Origin: a virus
Lineage: Duplodnaviria > Heunggongvirae > Uroviricota > Caudoviricetes
DNA length: 18,155 bases
Virus record (IMG/VR): IMGVR_UViG_2585427754_000003
Strand: one strand, 5' to 3'
The position numbers and the translations under genes are program-made. Of this stretch, positions 625-18,155 are shown piece by piece (position 1 is the stretch's first letter; every line of letters begins with the position of its first letter). The notes beneath the pieces were generated by a model that searched no databases, had not been told where the DNA came from, and saw nothing but the letters and a program-made list of their open reading frames with translations.

Positions 625-4331
<3,707 letters not shown>

Positions 4332-4351
<20 letters not shown>

Positions 4352-6689
4352 TCTCCCGCATATTGCCAGTATGGCCTTTAATGAGCCGCTGATGCTTGAA
4401 CCCGCCTATGCGCGGGTTTTCTTTTGTGCGCTTGCAGGCCAGCTGGGGATCAGCCGCCTGACGGATGCGGTGTCCGGTGACAGCCTGACTGCCGGAGAGG
4501 CACCCGCGACGCTGGCGTTATCCGGTAATGATGACGGGCCACGACAGGCCCGCAGTTATCAGGTCATGAACGGCATCGCCGTGCTGCCGGTGTCCGGCAC
4601 GCTGGTCAGCCGGACGCGGGCGCTGCAGCCGTACTCGGGGATGACCGGTTACAACGGCATTATCGCCCGTCTGCAACAGGCTGCCAGCGACCCGATGGTG
4701 GACGGCATTCTGCTCGATATGGACACGCCAGGCGGAATGGTGGCGGGGGCATTTGACTGCGCTGACATCATCGCCCGTGTGCGAGACATAAAACCGGTAT
4801 GGGCGCTGGCCAACGACATGAACTGCAGTGCAGGTCAGCTGCTTGCCAGTGCCGCCTCCCGGCGTCTGGTCACGCAGACCGCCCGGACAGGCTCCATCGG
4901 CGTCATGATGGCTCACAGTAATTACGGTGCTGCCCTGGAGAAACAGGGGGTGGAAATCACGCTGATTTACAGCGGCAGCCATAAGGTGGATGGCAATCCC
5001 TACAGCCATCTTCCGGATGACGTCCGGGAGACACTGCAGTCCCGGATGGACGCAACCCGCCAGATGTTTGCGCAGAAGGTGTCGGCATATACCGGCCTGT
5101 CTGTGCAGGCTGTGCTGGATACCGAGGCTGCAGTGTACAGCGGTCAGGAGGCCATTGATGTCGGACTGGCTGATGAACTTGTTAACAGCACCGATGCGAT
5201 CACCGTCATGCGTGATGCACTGGATGCGCGTAAATCCCGTCTCTCAGGAGGGCGAATGACCAAAGAGACTCAATCAACAACTGTTTCAGCCACTGCTTCG
5301 CAGACTGACGTTACTGACGTGGTGCCAGCGACGGAGGGCGAAAACGCCAGCGCGGCGCAGCCGGACGTGAACGCGCAGATCACCGCTGCGGTTGCGGCAG
5401 AAAACAGCCGCATTATGGGGATCCTCAACTGTGAGGAGGCTCACGGACGCGAAGAACAGGCCCGCGTGCTGGCAGAACCCCCCGGTATGACCGTGGAAAC
5501 GGCCCGCCGCATTCTGGCAGCTGCACCACAGAGTGCACAGGCGCGCAGTGACACTGCGCTGGATCGTCTGATGCAGGGGGCACCGGCACCGCTGGCTGCA
5601 GGTAACCCGGCATCCTTCATCACTAAAGGCCGCCTGTGCGGCTTTTTTTTACGGGATTTTTTTATGTCGATGTACACAACCGCCCAGCTGCTGGCGGCAA
5701 ATGAGAAGAAATTTAAGTTTGATCCGCTGTTTCTGCGTCTCTTTTTCCGTGAGAGCTATCCCTTCACCACGGAGAAAGTCTATCTCTCACAAATTCCGGG
5801 ACTGGTAAACATGGCGCTGTACGTTTCGCCGATTGTTTCCGGTGAGGTTATCCGCTCCCGTGGCGGCTCCACCTCTGAATTTACACCGGGATATGTCAAG
5901 CCGAAGCATGAGGTGAATCCGCAGATGACCCTGCGTCGCCTGCCGGATGAAGATCCGCAGAATCTGGCGGACCCGGCTTACCGCCGCCGTCGCATCATCA
6001 TGCAGAACATGCGAGACGAAGAGCTGGCCATTGCTCAGGTCGAAGAGATGCAGGCAGTTTCTGCTGTGCTTAAGGGCAAATACACCATGACCGGTGAAGC
6101 CTTCGATCCGGTTGAGGTGGATATGGGCCGCAGTGCGGCGAACAACATCACACAGTCCGGTGGTACGGAGTGGAGCAAGCGTGACAAGTCCACGTATGAC
6201 CCGACCGACGATATCGAAGCCTATGCGCTGAACGCCAGCGGAGTGGTGAATATCATCGTGTTTGATCCGAAAGGCTGGGCGCTGTTCCGTTCCTTCAAAG
6301 CCGTCAAGGAGAAGCTGGATACCCGTCGCGGCTCTAATTCCGAGCTGGAGACAGCGGTAAAAGACCTGGGCGAAGCGGTGTCCTATAAGGGGATGTATGG
6401 CGATACGGCGATCGTCGTGTATTCCGGACAGTACGTGGAAAACGACGTCAAAAAGAACTTCCTTCCGGACAACACGATGGTGCTGGGGAACACTCAGGCA
6501 CGCGGTCTGCGCACCTATGGCTGCATTCAGGATGCGGACGCACAGCGCGAAGGTATTAACGCCTCTGCCCGCTACCCGAAAAACTGGGTGACTACCGGCG
6601 ATCCGGCGCGTGAGTTCACCATGATTCAGTCAGCACCGCTGATGCTGCTGGCTGACCCTGATGCGTTCGTGTCCGTACAACTGGCGTAA
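4332..6689 (+). CDS. C: Prohead protease/scaffold C-Nu3 fused in frame to major capsid protein E (D gene deleted); ~785 codons from the C start
   Basis: C starts at GTG 4332 (MTAELRNLPHIASMAF...) behind SD ggagg at 4321-4325. The frame runs without a stop through the normal C/Nu3 C-terminal region (...AAGNPAS), then a 16-codon linker FITKGRLCGFFLRDFF read from former intergenic sequence, then the E ATG at 5664 and on to the E stop at 6689. The in-frame Nu3 start ATG is at 5046. The track ORF 4197..6689 is the same frame extended upstream into B. Confidence 0.75.
5625..5650 (+). promoter_or_regulatory. Terminator-like GC hairpin plus T-run immediately upstream of the E start, now inside the fusion reading frame
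   Basis: aaaggccgc ctgt gcggc followed by tttttttt: stem gccgc/gcggc (5629-5633 and 5638-5642), loop ctgt, then a T8 run (5643-5650). Confidence 0.45.
5664..6689 (+). CDS. E: Major capsid protein E (341 aa); also forms the C-terminal part of the C-Nu3-E fusion frame
   Basis: MSMYTTAQLLAANEKKFKFDPLFLRLFFRESYPF...DAFVSVQLA, 341 codons from ATG 5664, matching lambda gpE in length and almost all of its sequence. Confidence 0.9.
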   Translation: MSMYTTAQLLAANEKKFKFDPLFLRLFFRESYPFTTEKVYLSQIPGLVNMALYVSPIVSGEVIRSRGGSTSEFTPGYVKPKHEVNPQMTLRRLPDEDPQNLADPAYRRRRIIMQNMRDEELAIAQVEEMQAVSAVLKGKYTMTGEAFDPVEVDMGRSAANNITQSGGTEWSKRDKSTYDPTDDIEAYALNASGVVNIIVFDPKGWALFRSFKAVKEKLDTRRGSNSELETAVKDLGEAVSYKGMYGDTAIVVYSGQYVENDVKKNFLPDNTMVLGNTQARGLRTYGCIQDADAQREGINASARYPKNWVTTGDPAREFTMIQSAPLMLLADPDAFVSVQLA

Positions 6690-9659: not shown

Positions 9660-10075
9660 GTTTTGCCCTGAAACTGGCGCGCGAGATGGGGCGACCCGAC
9701 TGGCGTGCCATGCTTGCCGGGATGTCATCCACGGAGTATGCCGACTGGCACCGCTTTTACAGTACCCATTATTTTCATGATGTTCTGCTGGATATGCACT
9801 TTTCCGGGCTGACGTACACCGTGCTCAGCCTGTTTTTCAGCGATCCGGATATGCATCCGCTGGATTTCAGTTTGCTGAACCGGCGTGAGGCTGACGAAGA
9901 GCCTGAAGATGATGTGCTGATGCAGAAAGCGGCAGGGCTTGCCGGAGGTGTCCGCTTTGGCCCGGACGGGAATGAAGTTATCCCTACTTCCCCGGATGTG
10001 GCGGACATGACGGAGGATGACGTAATGCTGATGACAGTATCAGAAGGGATCGCAGGAGGAGTCCGGTATGGCTGA
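9237..10075 (+). CDS. T: Tail assembly protein G-T, made by programmed -1 ribosomal frameshift from the G frame into the T frame (T frame 9641..10075)
   Basis: Slippery heptamer G GGA AAG at 9635-9641 in the G frame. The -1 frame continues GKVFDGELSFALKLAREMGRPDWRAMLAGMSS... to the stop at 10075 and matches the lambda T region. Confidence 0.85.
9635..9641 (+). promoter_or_regulatory. -1 programmed ribosomal frameshift slippery site (GGGAAAG) for G-T
   Basis: Heptamer gggaaag positioned as X XXY YYZ in the G reading frame, 6 codons before the G stop; same motif and position as the lambda G-T frameshift site. Confidence 0.85.
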
Positions 10076-12629
10076 ACCGGTAGGCGATCTGGTCGTTGAT
10101 TTGAGTCTGGATGCGGCCAGATTTGACGAGCAGATGGCCAGAGTCAGGCGTCATTTTTCCGGTACGGAAAGTGATGCGAAAAAAACAGCGGCAGTCGTTG
10201 AACAGTCGATGAACCGGCAGGCGCTGGCTGCACAGAAAGCGGGAATTTCCGTCGGGCAGTATAAAGCCGCCATGCGTATGCTGCCTGCGCAGTTCACCGA
10301 CGTGGCCACGCAGCTTGCAGGCGAGCAGAGTCCGTGGCTGATCCTGCTGCAACAGGGGGGTCAGGTGAAGGACTCCTTCGGCGGGATGATCCCCATGTTC
10401 CGGGGGCTTGCCGGTGCGATCACCCTGCCGATGGTCGGGGCCACCTCGCTGGCGGTGGCGACCGGTGCGCTGGCGTATGCCTGGTATCAGGGCAACTCAA
10501 CCCTGTCCGATTTCAACAAAACGCTGGTCCTTTCCGGTAATCAGTCAGGTCTGACGGCAGATCGTATGCTGGTCCTGTCCAGAGCCGGGCAGGCGGCAGG
10601 GCTGACGTTTAACCAGACCAGCGAGTCACTCAGCGCACTGGTTAAGGCGGGGGTAAGCGGTGAGGCTCAGATTGCGTCCATCAGCCAGAGTGTGGCGCGT
10701 TTCTCCTCTGCATCCGGCGTGGAGGTGGACAAGGTCGCTGAAGCCTTCGGGAAGCTGACCACTGACCCGACGTCGGGGCTGACGGCGATGGCGCGCCAGT
10801 TCCATAACGTGACGGCGGAGCAGATTGCGTATGTTGCTCAGTTGCAGCGTTCCGGCGATGAGGCCGGGGCATTGCAGGCAGCGAACGAGGCCGCAACGAA
10901 AGGGTTTGATGACCAGACCCGCCGCCTGAAAGAGAACATGGGCACGCTGGAGACCTGGGCAGACAGGACAGCGCGGGCATTCAAATCCATGTGGGATGCG
11001 GTGCTGGATATTGGTCGTCCTGATACCGCGCAGGAGATGTTGATTAAGGCAGAGGCTGCGTTTAAGAAAGCAGACGACATCTGGAATCTGCGCAAGGATG
11101 ATTATTTTGTTAACGATGAAGCGCGGGCGCGTTACTGGGATGATCGTGAAAAGGCCCGTCTTGCGCTTGAAGCCGCCCGAAAGAAGGCTGAGCAGCAGAG
11201 TCAACAGGACAAAAATGCGCAGCAGCAGAGCGATACCGAAGCGTCACGGCTGAAATATACCGAAGAGGCACAGAAGGCTTACGAACGCCTGCAGACACCG
11301 CTGGAGAAATATACCGCCCGTCAGGAGGAACTGAATAAGGCACTGAAAGACGGGAAAATCCTGCAGGCAGATTACAACACGCTGATGGCGGCGGCGAAAA
11401 AGGATTATGAAGCGACGCTGAAAAAGCCGAAACAGTCCGGCGTGAAGGTGTCTGCGGGCGATCGTCAGGAAGACAGTGCTCATGCTGCCCTGCTGACGCT
11501 TCAGGCTGAACTCCGGACGCTGGAGAAGCATGCCGGAGCAAATGAGAAAATCAGCCAGCAGCGCCGGGATTTGTGGAAGGCGGAGAGTCAGTTCGCGGTA
11601 CTGGAGGAGGCGGCGCAACGTCGCCAGCTGTCTGCACAGGAGAAATCCCTGCTGGCGCATAAAGATGATACGCTGGAGTACAAACGCCAGCTGGCTGCAC
11701 TTGGCGACAAGGTTACGTATCAGGAGCGCCTGAACGCGCTGGCGCAGCAGGCGGATAAATTCGCACAGCAGCAACGGGCAAAACGGGCCGCCATTGATGC
11801 GAAAAGCCGGGGGCTGACTGACCGGCAGGCAGAACGAGAAGCCACAGAACAGCGCCTGAAGGAACAGTATGGCGATAATCCGCTGGCGCTGAATAACGTC
11901 ATGTCAGAGCAGAAAAAGACCTGGGCGGCTGAAGACCAGCTTCGCGGGAGCTGGATGGCAGGCCTGAAGTCCGGCTGGAGTGAGTGGGAAGAGAGCGCCA
12001 CGGACAGTATGTCGCAGGTTAAAAGTGCAGCCACGCAGACCTTTGATGGTATTGCACAGAATATGGCGGCGATGCTGACCGGCAGTGAGCAGAACTGGCG
12101 CAGCTTTACCCGTTCCGTGCTGTCCATGATGACAGAAATTCTGCTTAAGCAGGCAATGGTGGGGATTGTCGGGAGTATCGGCAGCGCCATTGGCGGGGCT
12201 GTTGGTGGCGGCGCATCCGCGTCAGGCGGTACAGCCATTCAGGCAGCTGCTGCGAAATTCCATTTTGCGACCGGGGGATTTACGGGAACCGGCGGCAAAT
12301 ATGAGCCAGCGGGGATTGTTCACCGTGGTGAATTTGTCTTCACGAAGGAGGCAACCAGCCGGATTGGCGTGGGGAATCTTTACCGGCTGATGCGCGGCTA
12401 TGCCACCGGCGGTTATGTCGGTACACCGGGCAGCATGGCAGACAGCCGGTCGCAGGCGTCCGGGACGTTTGAGCAGAATAACCATGTGGTGATTAACAAC
12501 GACGGCACGAACGGGCAGATAGGTCCGGCTGCTCTGAAGGCGGTGTATGACATGGCCCGCAAGGGTGCCCGTGATGAAATTCAGACACAGATGCGTGATG
12601 GTGGCCTGTTCTCCGGAGGTGGACGATGA
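10068..12629 (+). CDS. H: Tail tape measure protein H
   Basis: 853-aa ORF (MAEPVGDLVVDLSLDAARFDEQMARVRRHF...GLFSGGGR), identical in length to lambda gpH; coiled-coil-rich, Ala/Gln/Lys-rich middle region. Confidence 0.95.
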   Translation: MAEPVGDLVVDLSLDAARFDEQMARVRRHFSGTESDAKKTAAVVEQSMNRQALAAQKAGISVGQYKAAMRMLPAQFTDVATQLAGEQSPWLILLQQGGQVKDSFGGMIPMFRGLAGAITLPMVGATSLAVATGALAYAWYQGNSTLSDFNKTLVLSGNQSGLTADRMLVLSRAGQAAGLTFNQTSESLSALVKAGVSGEAQIASISQSVARFSSASGVEVDKVAEAFGKLTTDPTSGLTAMARQFHNVTAEQIAYVAQLQRSGDEAGALQAANEAATKGFDDQTRRLKENMGTLETWADRTARAFKSMWDAVLDIGRPDTAQEMLIKAEAAFKKADDIWNLRKDDYFVNDEARARYWDDREKARLALEAARKKAEQQSQQDKNAQQQSDTEASRLKYTEEAQKAYERLQTPLEKYTARQEELNKALKDGKILQADYNTLMAAAKKDYEATLKKPKQSGVKVSAGDRQEDSAHAALLTLQAELRTLEKHAGANEKISQQRRDLWKAESQFAVLEEAAQRRQLSAQEKSLLAHKDDTLEYKRQLAALGDKVTYQERLNALAQQADKFAQQQRAKRAAIDAKSRGLTDRQAEREATEQRLKEQYGDNPLALNNVMSEQKKTWAAEDQLRGSWMAGLKSGWSEWEESATDSMSQVKSAATQTFDGIAQNMAAMLTGSEQNWRSFTRSVLSMMTEILLKQAMVGIVGSIGSAIGGAVGGGASASGGTAIQAAAAKFHFATGGFTGTGGKYEPAGIVHRGEFVFTKEATSRIGVGNLYRLMRGYATGGYVGTPGSMADSRSQASGTFEQNNHVVINNDGTNGQIGPAALKAVYDMARKGARDEIQTQMRDGGLFSGGGR

Positions 12630-12955
12630 AAACCTTCCGCTGGAAAGTGAAACCCGGTATGGATGTGGCTTCGGCCCCTTCTGTAAGAAAGGTGCGCTTT
12701 GGTGATGGCTATTCCCAGCGAGCGCCTGCCGGGCTGAATGCCAACCTGAAAACGTACAGCGTGACGCTTTCTGTCCCCCGTGAGGAGGCCACGGTACTGG
12801 AGTCGTTTCTGGAAGAGCACGGGGGCTGGAAATCCTTTCTGTGGACGCCGCCTTATGAGTGGCGGCAGATAAAGGTGACCTGCGCAAAATGGTCGTCGCG
12901 GGTCAGTATGTTGCGTGTTGAGTTCAGCGCAGAGTTTGAACAGGTGGTGAACTGA
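12626..12955 (+). CDS. M: Tail tip protein M
   Basis: 109-aa ORF MKTFRWKVKPGMDVASAPSVRKVRFGDGYSQRAPAGLNANLKTYSVTL..., matches lambda gpM; ATGA overlap with H. Confidence 0.9.
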   Translation: MKTFRWKVKPGMDVASAPSVRKVRFGDGYSQRAPAGLNANLKTYSVTLSVPREEATVLESFLEEHGGWKSFLWTPPYEWRQIKVTCAKWSSRVSMLRVEFSAEFEQVVN

Positions 12956-13653
12956 TGCAGGATATCCGGCAGGAAACACTGAATGAATGCACCCGTGCGG
13001 AGCAGTCGGCCAGCGTGGTGCTATGGGAAATCGACCTGACAGAGGTCGGTGGAGAACGTTATTTTTTCTGTAATGAGCAGAACGAAAAAGGTGAGCCGGT
13101 CACCTGGCAGGGGCGACAGTATCAGCCGTATCCCATTCAGGGGAGTGGTTTCGAACTGAATGGCAAAGGCACCAGTACGCGCCCCACGCTGACGGTTTCT
13201 AACCTGTATGGCATGGTCACCGGGATGGCGGAAGATCTGCAGAGTCTGGTCGGCGGAACGGTGGTCCGGCGTAAGGTTTACGCCCGTTTTCTGGATGCGG
13301 TGAACTTCGTCAACGGAAACAGCGACGCCGATCCGGAGCAGGAGGTGATTAGCCGCTGGCGCATCGAGCAGTGCAGCGAATTGAGCGCGGTCAGTGCCTC
13401 CTTTGTACTGTCCACGCCGACTGAAACGGATGGCGCTGTTTTTCCGGGACGTATCATGCTGGCTAACACCTGCACCTGGACCTATCGCGGTGATGAGTGC
13501 GGTTATAACGGTCCGGCGGTCGCGGATGAATATGACCAGCCGACGTCCGATATCACGAAGGATAAATGCAGCAAATGCCTGAGCGGTTGTAAGTTCCGCA
13601 ATAACGTCGGCAACTTTGGCGGCTTCCTTTCCATTAACAAACTTTCGCAGTAA
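12955..13653 (+). CDS. L: Tail tip protein L
   Basis: 232-aa ORF MQDIRQETLNECTRAEQSASVVLWEIDLTEVGGERYFFCNEQNEKGEPVTWQG..., matches lambda gpL; TGATG overlap with M. Confidence 0.9.
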   Translation: MQDIRQETLNECTRAEQSASVVLWEIDLTEVGGERYFFCNEQNEKGEPVTWQGRQYQPYPIQGSGFELNGKGTSTRPTLTVSNLYGMVTGMAEDLQSLVGGTVVRRKVYARFLDAVNFVNGNSDADPEQEVISRWRIEQCSELSAVSASFVLSTPTETDGAVFPGRIMLANTCTWTYRGDECGYNGPAVADEYDQPTSDITKDKCSKCLSGCKFRNNVGNFGGFLSINKLSQ

Positions 13654-13658
13654 ATCCC

Positions 13659-14402
13659 ATGACACAGACAGAATCAGCGATTCTGGCGCACGCCCGGCGA
13701 TGTGCGCCAGCGGAGTCGTGCGGCTTCGTGGTAAGCACGCCGGAGGGGGAAAGATATTTCCCCTGCGTGAATATCTCCGGTGAGCCGGAGGCGTATTTCC
13801 GTATGTCGCCGGAAGACTGGCTGCAGGCAGAAATGCAGGGTGAGATTGTGGCGCTGGTCCACAGCCACCCCGGTGGTCTGCCCTGGCTGAGTGAGGCCGA
13901 CCGGCGGCTGCAGGTGCAGAGTGATTTGCCGTGGTGGCTGGTCTGCCGGGGGACGATTCATAAGTTCCGCTGTGTGCCGCATCTCACCGGGCGGCGCTTT
14001 GAACACGGGGTGACGGACTGTTACACGCTGTTCCGGGATGCTTATCATCTGGCGGGGATTGAGATGCCGGATTTTCATCGCGAGGATGACTGGTGGCGTC
14101 ACGGTCAGAATCTCTATCTGGATAATCTGGAGGCCACAGGGCTGTATCAGGTGCCGTTGTCAGCGGCGCAGCCGGGCGATGTGCTGCTGTGCTGTTTTGG
14201 TTCATCGGTGCCGAATCATGCCGCCATTTACTGTGGTGATGGCGAGCTGCTGCACCATATTCCTGAACAACTGAGCAAACGAGAGAGGTACACCGACAAA
14301 TGGCAGCGACGCACACACTCCCTCTGGCGTCACCGGGCATGGCACGCATCTGCCTTTACGGGGATTTACAACGATTTGGCCGCCGCATCGACCTTCGTGT
14401 GA
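13659..14402 (+). CDS. K: Tail tip assembly protein K (JAMM/MPN plus NlpC/P60 two-domain protein)
   Basis: 247-aa ORF starting 5 nt after the L stop. JAMM signature HSHPGGLPWLSEAD (HxH-x7-S-x2-D) with an upstream Glu in ...PAESCGFVV; C-terminal NlpC/P60-like region with Cys in DCYTLFRDAY and His in HAAIYCGDG. An alternative internal start at ATG 13803, preceded by ggagg, would give 199 aa. Confidence 0.8.
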   Translation: MTQTESAILAHARRCAPAESCGFVVSTPEGERYFPCVNISGEPEAYFRMSPEDWLQAEMQGEIVALVHSHPGGLPWLSEADRRLQVQSDLPWWLVCRGTIHKFRCVPHLTGRRFEHGVTDCYTLFRDAYHLAGIEMPDFHREDDWWRHGQNLYLDNLEATGLYQVPLSAAQPGDVLLCCFGSSVPNHAAIYCGDGELLHHIPEQLSKRERYTDKWQRRTHSLWRHRAWHASAFTGIYNDLAAASTFV

Positions 14403-14971
14403 AAACGGGGGCTGAAGCCATCCGCGCACTGGCCACACAGCTCCCGGCGTTTCGTCAGAAACTGAGCGACGGCTGGTATCAGGTACGGATTGCCGGGCAG
14501 GATGTCAGCACGTCCGGATTAACGGCGCAGTTACATGAGACTCTGCCTGATGGCGCTGTGATTCATATTGTTCCCAGAGTCGCCGGGGCCAAGTCAGGTG
14601 GCGTATTCCAGATTGTCCTGGGAGCAGCCGCCATTGCCGGATCATTCTTTACCGCCGGAGCCACCCTTGCAGCATGGGGGGCAGCCATTGGGGCCGGTGG
14701 TATGACCGGCATCCTGTTTTCTCTCGGTGCCAGTATGGTGCTCGGTGGTGTGGCGCAGATGCTTGCACCGAAAGCCAGAACTCCCCGTACACAGACAACG
14801 GATAACGGCAAACAGAACACCTATTTCTCCTCACTGGATAACATGGTTGCCCAGGGCAATGTTCTGCCTGTTCTGTACGGTGAAATGCGCGTGGGGTCAC
14901 GCGTGGTTTCTCAGGAGATCAGCACGGCAGACGAAGGGGATGGTGGTCAGGTTGTGGTGATTGGTCGCTGA
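14300..14971 (+). CDS. I: Tail tip assembly protein I
   Basis: 223-aa ORF MAATHTLPLASPGMARICLYGDLQRFGRRIDLRVKTGAEAIRALATQLPAF..., matches lambda gpI in length; overlaps the K 3' end by ~100 nt in another frame, as in lambda. Confidence 0.9.
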   Translation: MAATHTLPLASPGMARICLYGDLQRFGRRIDLRVKTGAEAIRALATQLPAFRQKLSDGWYQVRIAGQDVSTSGLTAQLHETLPDGAVIHIVPRVAGAKSGGVFQIVLGAAAIAGSFFTAGATLAAWGAAIGAGGMTGILFSLGASMVLGGVAQMLAPKARTPRTQTTDNGKQNTYFSSLDNMVAQGNVLPVLYGEMRVGSRVVSQEISTADEGDGGQVVVIGR

Positions 14972-14989
14972 TGCAAAATGTTTTATGTG

Positions 14990-15010
14990 AAACCGCCTCC
15001 GGGCGGTTTT
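14990..15010 (+). promoter_or_regulatory. Terminator-like hairpin in the I-J intergenic region
   Basis: aaaccgcc tccg ggcggtttt: perfect 8-bp stem (14990-14997 and 15002-15009), 4-nt loop, trailing T-run; 22 nt upstream of the J ATG. Confidence 0.4.
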
Positions 15011-15031
15011 ATCGTTTATGGAGCGTGAGGA

Positions 15032-18000
15032 ATGGGTAAAGGCAGCAGTAAGGGGCATACCCCGCGCGAAGCGAAGGACAACCTGAAGTCCACGCAGCTG
15101 CTGAGTGTGATCGATGCCATCAGCGAAGGGCCGGTTGAAGGTCCGGTGGATGGATTAAAAAGCGTGCTGCTGAACAGTACGCCGGTGCTGGACAGTGAGG
15201 GGAATACCAATATATCCGGCGTCACGGTGGTGTTCCGGGCCGGTGAGCAGGAGCAGACACCGCCGGAGGGATTTGAATCCTCCGGCTCCGAGACGGTGCT
15301 CGGTACAGAAGTGAAATATGACACGCCGATCACCCGGACCATCACGTCGGCAAACATTGACCGTCTGCGTTTTACTTTCGGCGTGCAGGCACTGGTGGAA
15401 ACCACCTCAAAGGGTGACCGGAATCCGTCGGAAGTCCGCCTGCTGGTTCAGATACAACGTAACGGTGGCTGGGTGACGGAAAAAGACATCACCATTAAGG
15501 GTAAAACCACTTCACAGTATCTGGCCTCGGTGGTGGTGGATAACCTGCCGCCGCGCCCGTTCAGTATCCGGATGCGCAGGATGACGCCGGACAGCACCAC
15601 AGACCAGCTGCAGAACAAAACGCTCTGGTCGTCATACACCGAAATTATCGATGTGAAACAGTGCTACCCGAACACGGCACTGATCGGCGTGCAGGTGGAC
15701 TCGGAGCAGTTCGGCAGCCAGCAGGTGAGCCGTAATTATCATCTGCGCGGGCGTATTCTGCAGGTGCCGTCGAATTATAACCCGCAGACGCGGCAATACA
15801 GCGGTATCTGGGACGGAACGTTTAAACCGGCATACAGCAACAACATGGCCTGGTGTCTGTGGGATATGCTGACCCATCCGCGCTACGGCATGGGGAAACG
15901 TCTTGGTGCGGCGGATGTGGATAAATGGGCGCTGTATGTCATCGGCCAGTACTGCGACCAGTCAGTGCCGGACGGCTTTGGCGGCACGGAGCCGCGCATC
16001 ACCTGTAATGCGTACCTGACCACACAGCGCAAGGCGTGGGATGTGCTCAGTGATTTCTGCTCGGCGATGCGCTGTATGCCGGTATGGAACGGGCAGACGC
16101 TGACGTTCGTGCAGGACCGACCATCAGATAAGGTGTGGACCTATAACCGCAGTAATGTGGTGATGCCGGATGATGGCGCGCCGTTCCGCTACAGCTTCAG
16201 CGCCCTGAAGGACCGCCATAATGCCGTTGAGGTGAACTGGATTGACCCGAACAACGGCTGGGAGACGGCGACAGAGCTTGTTGAAGATACGCAGGCCATT
16301 GCCCGTTACGGTCGTAATGTTACGAAGATGGATGCCTTTGGCTGTACCAGACGGGGGCAGGCACACCGCGCCGGGCTGTGGCTGATTAAAACGGAGCTGC
16401 TGGAGACGCAGACCGTGGATTTCAGCGTGGGTGCCGAAGGGCTTCGCCATGTGCCGGGTGATGTTATTGAAATCTGCGATGATGACTATGCGGGGATCAG
16501 CATCGGCGGGCGCGTGCTAGCTGTGAACAGCCAGACCCGGACGCTGACGCTCGACCGTGAAATCACGCTGCCATCCTCCGGTACCACGCTAATAAGCCTG
16601 GTTGACGGAAGTGGCAATCCGGTCAGCGTGGAGGTCCAGTCCGTCACCGACGGCGTGAAGGTAAAAGTTAGCCGGGTTCCTGACGGTGTTGCTGAATACA
16701 GCGTGTGGGGGCTTAAGCTGCCGACGCTGCGCCAGCGCCTGTTCCGCTGTGTGAGTATCCGTGAGAACGATGACGGCACGTATGCCATCACTGCCGTGCA
16801 GCATGTACCGGAAAAAGAAGCCATCGTGGATAACGGGGCGCACTTTGACGGCGACCAGAGCGGCACGGTGAATGGTGTCACGCCGCCAGCGGTGCAGCAC
16901 CTGACCGCCGAAGTCACCGCAGGCAGCGGGGAATATCAGGTGCTGGCGCGCTGGGACACGCCGAAGGTGGTGAAGGGCGTGAGCTTCCTGCTCCGTCTGA
17001 CCGTAACAGCGGATGACGGCAGTGAGCGGCTGGTCAGCACGGCCCGGACGACGGAAACCACATACCGCTTCACGCAACTGGCGCTGGGGAACTACAGGCT
17101 GACAGTCCGGGCGGTAAATGCGTGGGGGCAGCAGGGCGATCCGGCGTCGGTATCGTTCCGGATTGCCGCACCGGCAGCACCGTCGAGGATTGAGCTGACG
17201 CCGGGCTATTTTCAGATAACCGCCACGCCGCATCTTGCCGTTTATGACCCGACGGTACAGTTTGAGTTCTGGTTCTCGGAAAAGCGGATTGCGGATATCA
17301 GGCAGGTTGAAACCACAGCCCGCTATCTTGGTACGGCGCTGTACTGGATAGCCGCCAGTATCAATATCAAACCGGGCCATGATTATTACTTTTATATCCG
17401 CAGTGTGAACACCGTCGGCAAATCGGCATTTGTGGAGGCCGTCGGTCGGGCGAGCGATGATGCGGAAGGTTACCTGGATTTTTTCAAAGGCCAGATAACC
17501 GAATCCCATCTTGGCAAGAAGCTGCTGGAAAAAGTCGAGCTGACGGAGGATAACGCCAGCAGACTGGAGGAGTTTTCGAAAGAGTGGAAAGACGCCAACG
17601 ATAAATGGAATGCCATGTGGGGCGTCAAAATTGAGCAGACCGAAGACGGCAAACATTATGTCGCGGGTATTGGCCTCAGTATGGAGGACACGGAGGAAGG
17701 CAAACTGAGTCAGTTTCTGGTTGCCGCTAACCGTATCGCGTTTATTGACCCGGCAAACGGGAATGAAACGCCGATGTTTGTGGCGCAGGGCAACCAGATA
17801 TTCATGAACGACGTGTTCCTGAAACGCCTGACGGCACCCACCATTACCAGCGGTGGCAGTCCTCCGGTATTTTCCCTGACATCAGACGGAAAGCTGACCG
17901 CTAAAAATGCGGATATCAGTGGCAGTGTGAATGCGAACTCAGGAACGCTCAACAATGTCACGATTAACCAGAACTGTACGATTAAGGGCATGCTGGAGGC

Positions 18001-18155
18001 GACCCAGGTCAGAGGGGATTTCGTTAAAGCTGTATCAAAAGCCTTCCCGAAAAAAGTCGGTACGTGGGGTAACACGGAAACACCAGACGGTACGGTTACA
18101 GTCACCATCAGCGATGATCATAACTTTGACCGCCAGATTATTATTCCGCCCATTA
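15032..18155 (+). CDS. J: Central tail fibre / host specificity protein J, 3'-truncated by window edge (first ~1041 codons)
   Basis: ATG at 15032 behind SD gaggaa; frame 2 stays open to the end of the window ([54 protein letters not shown]...). Colinear with lambda gpJ over most of its length. Absent from the ORF track only because no stop lies within the window. Confidence 0.95.

Follow-up and report, generated by a model that had tools for sequence, protein, structure and literature searches.

Gene J of this prophage very probably consists of a lambda-like body that carries, as its C-terminal receptor module, the allele of phage 434 (h434), as judged from DNA and protein alignments. The 434/h434 allele of J is a classical one: its sequence is already available, and published work already connects it with OmpC. 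The finding holds up, but it is an ordinary one. For annotation purposes, we suggest that the J of this prophage be labelled a 434/h434-type allele that is predicted to use OmpC, rather than a LamB binder of the lambda kind. The evidence comes from the whole stretch of 18,155 nucleotides that was analysed, referred to here as the window, and from its comparison with lambda, with phage 434 and with complete E. coli genomes.

Gene J and its departure from lambda

J opens with an ATG at position 15032 on the plus strand and no stop codon occurs up to the last base of the window, leaving 1041 codons in view; the first-pass annotation had rightly placed the end of the window ahead of the J stop. 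If J is 1137 residues long, as it is in identical relatives, about 96 of its codons are absent from the window. From the N terminus to the C terminus the visible protein contains the Pfam domains FNIII-A_GpJ, Phage-tail_3, Ig_J, Ig_J_second, Phage_Tail_Tip (residues 845-972) and Ig_GpJ_C, all six exceeding their gathering scores and the last one being clipped by the window end. This is the domain set of a lambda-like tip attachment protein J. Upstream of it, the lambda-type tail genes H, M, L, K and I occupy positions 10068-14971, so that the order H-M-L-K-I-J is preserved. In complete genomes that have an identical J the next gene encodes the Lom protein WP_001230353.1, and the lom side of the window's own J lies beyond the contig end. 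The features of J that are discussed below are the following.

15032-18155, plus strand: J, tip attachment protein or central tail fibre, complete at its 5' end and cut at its 3' end by the end of the contig
15032-17857, plus strand: lambda-like J body, residues 1-942, of which 921 agree with lambda gpJ and 929 with 434 J
17852-18155, plus strand: tract of 304 nt with 100% DNA identity to J of phage 434 and J of lambda h434 imm21
17858-17884, plus strand: first small group of changes from lambda to 434-type residues (N943S, A946V, P951S)
17885-17940, plus strand: block of 56 nt in which the window, lambda, 434 and E. coli AR_452 do not differ; J body and receptor module were probably joined here by recombination
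17951-18154, plus strand: visible part of the 434-type receptor module, residues 974-1041, with 68/68 residues identical to 434 J and 35/68 to lambda
18032-18154, plus strand: first 41 residues (1001-1041) of the PF12421 Ig_GpJ_C domain, profile positions 1-42 of 135, E = 3.1e-08
18065-18070, plus strand: Trp-Gly insertion of 6 nt relative to lambda J, also present in 434

Over the body of J, where the hub domains, the FNIII/Ig domains, the helical shaft and the greater part of the beta-prism fibre are located, the identity to lambda gpJ (NC_001416) amounts to 97.8%. Residues 943-973 are still close to lambda, with 28 of 31 identical and the three changes N943S, A946V and P951S, whereas in residues 974-1041 the identity falls to 35/68 and a two-residue insertion (W1012, G1013) appears. 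The same transition is seen in the DNA, where 56 mismatches to lambda in the 1400 nt of 16532-17931 (4.0%) are followed by 94 in the 224 alignment columns of 17932-18155 (42%). A maximum chi-square test of the window against lambda sets the breakpoint at ~17965 with chi2 = 360, far beyond chance. Divergence is weak from ~17850 on, with the first changes at 17853-17884, and strong from about 17941-17951; its strong onset, at residue 974 (nt 17951), falls two residues past the end of Phage_Tail_Tip (972). The first-pass annotation had claimed a departure from lambda near nt 17850 that becomes strong from ~17945, and both coordinates proved right; its translation of J was exact, and the lambda sequence that it gave also matches the actual one. 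At the window end the visible protein reads ...CCGCCCATTATTTTTAACGGTATAGCG.... A lambda-type LamB-binding module would be expected to show high identity to gpJ residues 974-1132, and the identity of 35/68 together with an indel is far from this.

One other open reading frame in this region was considered, a frame of 132 aa at 17710-18108 on the minus strand, and it was rejected as a gene: a stop interrupts it in phage 434. High third-position GC in a gene would favour chance open frames on the strand opposite to it, and the gene that this frame faces has a third-position GC of 0.68, making the frame very likely a chance one. No Rfam family was found within 14900-18155.

The phage 434 allele and the families of receptor modules

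Among phage records, the best megablast matches of the window end are phage 434 (OL657226, OL657227) and lambda h434 imm21 (OM418627). The final mismatch of the window to either of them stands at 17851, with none beyond it, so that the visible part of the module agrees with 434 J in 68/68 residues and 304/304 nt. Both 434 J (UMO75286.1, OL657226) and the h434 allele (OM418627) have the same Trp-Gly insertion relative to lambda, and 434 J also resembles the J of the window in its lambda-like body (929/942) and in its location after L-K-I; the two differ by 13 substitutions scattered over residues 1-942. An alignment with 434 had been proposed in the first-pass annotation as a check, and it settles the identity of the module. 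The further claim made there, that the receptor-recognition part of J is unlike that of lambda, is supported, since the divergent DNA is that of 434 J and of lambda h434 and the region is covered by PF12421.

What follows the visible part can be read from relatives of this J. All 1041 visible residues are identical to RefSeq WP_047656194.1 (1137 aa, E. coli AR_452), and the window DNA from 16532 to 18155 is identical to the J of the finished AR_452 chromosome. WP_047656194.1 occurs in many E. coli chromosomes (strains AR_452, CRE1540, ET300 and AH25, for example), in prophages that retain gene D and are overall 98.7% identical to the window. Between residue 974 and its C terminus, the AR_452 J agrees with 434 J at 160 of 164 residues and with lambda at about 42% (65 of 153 aligned positions, with 17 gap columns). 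The differences between this nearest full-length relative and 434 are G1099R, V1108I, H1110Q and R1115G, and the 434-type J, 1137 aa long, ends in ...IFNGIAYDDPGSGNNPGG...KKAASGISIR. PF12421, described as 'C-terminal receptor binding domain', covers residues 1001-1136; in the full-length identical relative it is matched over profile positions 1-134 with E = 4.9e-25. The 434-type module also aligns end to end with the sequences of the solved lambda J and A8 gpJ structures.

Ten loci encoding a gpI identical to that of the window (L006-L015) were assembled into a panel, with lambda and 434 added. The J proteins of the ten loci are 1131, 1132, 1159, 1160 or 1165 residues long, and the receptor modules of the panel fall into four discrete families, namely lambda, the 434 type, the A8 type and a fourth type (L007, L013). 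Within a family the modules are 91-100% identical (93-100% for the 434 type), and between families 40-48% for most pairs and 63-66% for the A8 type against the fourth type. The 434 type is 40-48% identical to any of the other three families; for the A8 type, which is that of L006, the figure is 46-48%, and the window module is not of this type. By eye, the A8 module (PDB 9WCA) reads the same as the module in L006, L009, L010 and L015; the A8 and 1A2 sequences were not found in the supplements of PMC11338833, either as protein or as DNA. Two upstream shaft types assort independently of the four receptor modules, and in L010 the 434-type motif SPPVFSLTS stands ahead of an A8-type module. The occurrence of four discrete receptor families next to an identical gpI points to routine module exchange, and the pattern of J modules, as far as the alignments go, is one of ordinary lambdoid mosaicism.

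The block at 17885-17940 encodes most of a 22-residue peptide that is near-invariant in 14/14 aligned J proteins, and it is here that recombination probably joined the J body to the receptor module. Engineers of J chimeras join at the same conserved stretch, at lambda residue 964 (PMC11338833). According to the mechanism we propose, homologous recombination in the conserved block, within residues ~952-973, would have joined the receptor module to the J body, and such joining is the usual lambdoid route of host-range swapping. The case illustrates a known rule, by which lambdoid phages exchange host range through the C-terminal module of J, at a joint that is short and conserved, and the same joint now serves the retargeting of lambda particles for DNA delivery.

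Prophage state and alternative readings

The window is the entire draft contig JORP01000097.1 of assembly GCA_000713265.1. It begins and ends in repeats: its 5' end falls in an IS and its 3' end in the J receptor module, which is multi-copy. A contig that ends in multi-copy sequence points to an assembly break as the cause of the J truncation. How widespread the module is was seen when the 306-nt segment 17850-18155 was compared with 5,426 complete E. coli genomes. It matches 2,972 of the 5,426, and in 2,097 (~39%) 80% or more of its length is matched, a coverage that at megablast stringency is attainable by the 434 family only. Genomes having the segment carry a median of 2 copies and a maximum of 9. 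It is also found, at ~95% identity, in long-tailed Stx1a- and Stx2c-converting phages.

Two lesions suggest that the prophage is damaged. The first is at the very start of the window:

1-594: 3' part of an IS21-family element (istB, PF01695; ISEc12-like), adjoining lambda coordinate ~680, inside Nu1

Of the small-terminase gene Nu1, the contig keeps no more than the final ~57 nt, and Nu1 is probably disrupted by the IS. The second lesion is a deletion of 386 bp at 5613/5614, corresponding to lambda 5700-6085, which takes away 12 codons at the end of C/Nu3 and all of D, the head-decoration gene. Together with one extra T in a downstream T-run, it produces an in-frame fusion of 785 aa (ORF 4332-6689) that consists of C residues 1-427, a linker of 17 residues and the full-length major capsid protein E. 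This exact C-E fusion protein is on record only for JORP01000097.1, the exact junction of the D deletion is absent from viral and species-representative genome contig collections, and among the matches listed, all of the best-matching complete E. coli genomes keep gene D. The loss of D may be a genuine, inactivating event, or it may come from faulty assembly. Judged by its sequence, with Nu1 hit by an IS and D missing, the prophage appears to be defective.

The 434-type module might thus be a relic in a dead prophage, without present function and with a specificity that is a matter of history, and we give this reading an even chance. The IS21-family element inside Nu1 and the loss of D and of the end of C/Nu3 speak for it. 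At the same time no stop interrupts the 1041 visible codons of J, and this J is identical to that of other genomes, so that any decay is recent, and the tail genes of a defective prophage can be rescued by recombination with incoming lambdoid phages. The relic reading bears on the current use of the module, and it is in no conflict with its identification as 434-type.

Another reading takes the visible part as the 434-type start of a new chimera, in which the distal two-thirds derive from another or a new family and the specificity is neither that of lambda nor that of 434. The contig does stop within the receptor domain, at residue 1041; its break could mark the point at which paralogous prophage copies diverge, and the variable residues of the 434 family cluster in a part beyond the window (1099-1115). 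This reading is nevertheless quite improbable, as none of the ten identical-gpI loci switches family inside the receptor domain (0/10), and as complete genomes in which 17850-18155 is matched at 100% keep to the 434 type beyond it. Five such genomes were sampled, and each of the five has a J of 3414 nt (1137 aa) followed by the same Lom, the J being WP_047656194.1 in 4/5. Given that the segment is multi-copy, a repeat-caused assembly break is the simpler explanation of the contig end. That the last ~96 residues of J, which make up ~70% of the receptor domain with most of its distal loops and lie outside the window, form a new variant or an intra-domain chimera is likewise very improbable. If the J end were other than plain 434 and its variable residues tuned the recognition of natural OmpC variants, it would represent a naturally retargeted tip, useful for mapping specificity towards OmpC variants.

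It is hardly credible that the C terminus is a drifted LamB-binding allele of lambda, within the normal variation of LamB binders. It does belong to the same fold family (PF12421), and about half of its visible residues (35/68) are common with lambda. The receptor modules, however, form discrete families, with 93-100% identity within the 434 family against 40-48% to any other; the visible residues of this module (68/68) are all those of 434, a reported OmpC user, and over the full module of identical relatives the identity to lambda is 40-41%. In addition, the abrupt rise in mismatches from 4% to 42% argues for recombination and not for drift. There is also next to no chance that the switch from lambda to 434 is an assembly artefact made of the reads of two prophages joined near the contig end, for although this is a draft assembly, with a window that is a whole contig ending in multi-copy sequence and that has an odd 386-bp deletion found nowhere else, the region 16532-18155 is 100% identical to the intact J of the finished AR_452 chromosome, four more complete genomes match 17850-18155 at 100%, and phage 434 itself joins the same lambda-like body to the same module.

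In strain G8 the same IS family is found in lom instead of Nu1. Strains G6/7, G8 and G1/2 seemed to cover the whole window (100%), but this figure came from adding up separate pieces.

Predicted receptor and mode of action

The receptor of phage 434 is reported to be OmpC and not LamB (PMC3509688, PMC11101478, PMC12502783), and two of these three papers add that lambda equipped with the 434 tail-fibre gene uses OmpC in place of LamB. For lambda J, the last 249 residues are enough for LamB binding (PMC3509688). In the J gene of lambda h434 imm21, lambda DNA gives way to 434 DNA at codons 705-711, and the 434 sequence then extends over the rest of J and over lom, stf and tfa. From the position of this switch, the 434-derived segment of the hybrid includes the receptor module; since the hybrid also has the lom, stf and tfa of 434, it does not by itself map the use of OmpC to the tip of J. 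The primary source for the 434 receptor (protein Ib, which is OmpC) is said to be Hantke 1978.

By analogy with 434, we infer that the copy of the module in the window binds OmpC and works likewise. This conclusion follows from the identity to 434 and not from the divergence from lambda. The first-pass annotation had taken the divergence as a sign of a different receptor specificity; its reading of the specificity is supported through the identity to 434, but the divergence alone is no proof of it. Indeed, the A8-type module is also reported to bind OmpC (PMC11338833). With the 434 and A8 types 46-48% identical and both reported as OmpC binders, divergence alone predicts no new receptor, and caution is called for wherever a new receptor is to be predicted merely from the distance to lambda.

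Two of the closest known systems have solved structures. Lambda gpJ (NP_040600; 8IYK, 8XCJ, 8XCK), which binds LamB, has the same domain architecture as the J of the window and a receptor domain of the same fold family; it differs from the 434-type relatives by indels in the module and by the reported receptor, LamB as opposed to OmpC. The A8 gpJ chimera (PDB 9WCA/9WCB; Brodel et al., Nature 2024) was engineered for OmpC and combines the lambda J body with a natural prophage module. Its joint lies at the conserved block (lambda residue 964), as is probable for the J of the window, and its module family differs from the 434 type.

In lambda, four loops of the receptor-binding domain of J insert into the LamB trimer; this binding parts the bottoms of the domains and twists the beta-prism fibre, whereupon the helical shaft flips, the FNIII domains come free and the tail tip opens (PMC11101478). 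With this in mind, one may propose a similar sequence of events for the 434-type J. J would act as a trimer, and the central tail fibre would carry at its tip an Ig-like receptor-binding domain made up of the last ~135 residues of J. In the 434 version this tip would dock on the OmpC porin instead of LamB. As in lambda, binding would open the receptor domain, and the change would then pass up the fibre until the tail tip opens for DNA ejection. A lambda-type triggering with OmpC as the docking partner is, by homology, the best-supported reading, because the PF12421 match is full-length and the module aligns end to end with the solved J fragments.

Variation within the 434 family may bear on the finer specificity of this tip. 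In the six members compared (L001, L002, L008, L011, L012, L014), 4 of the 11 variable residues, the last four, fall in one stretch of 17 residues. These sites, located beyond the window end, are 1099 (G/R), 1108 (V/I), 1110 (H/Q) and 1115 (R/G/W). The 1099-1115 stretch may be a loop in contact with the receptor that diversifying selection adapts to OmpC variants, and residues 1099, 1108, 1110 and 1115 may tune the recognition of natural variants of this porin. The four differences between the full-length relative and 434 at these positions could alter which variants of OmpC are recognised.
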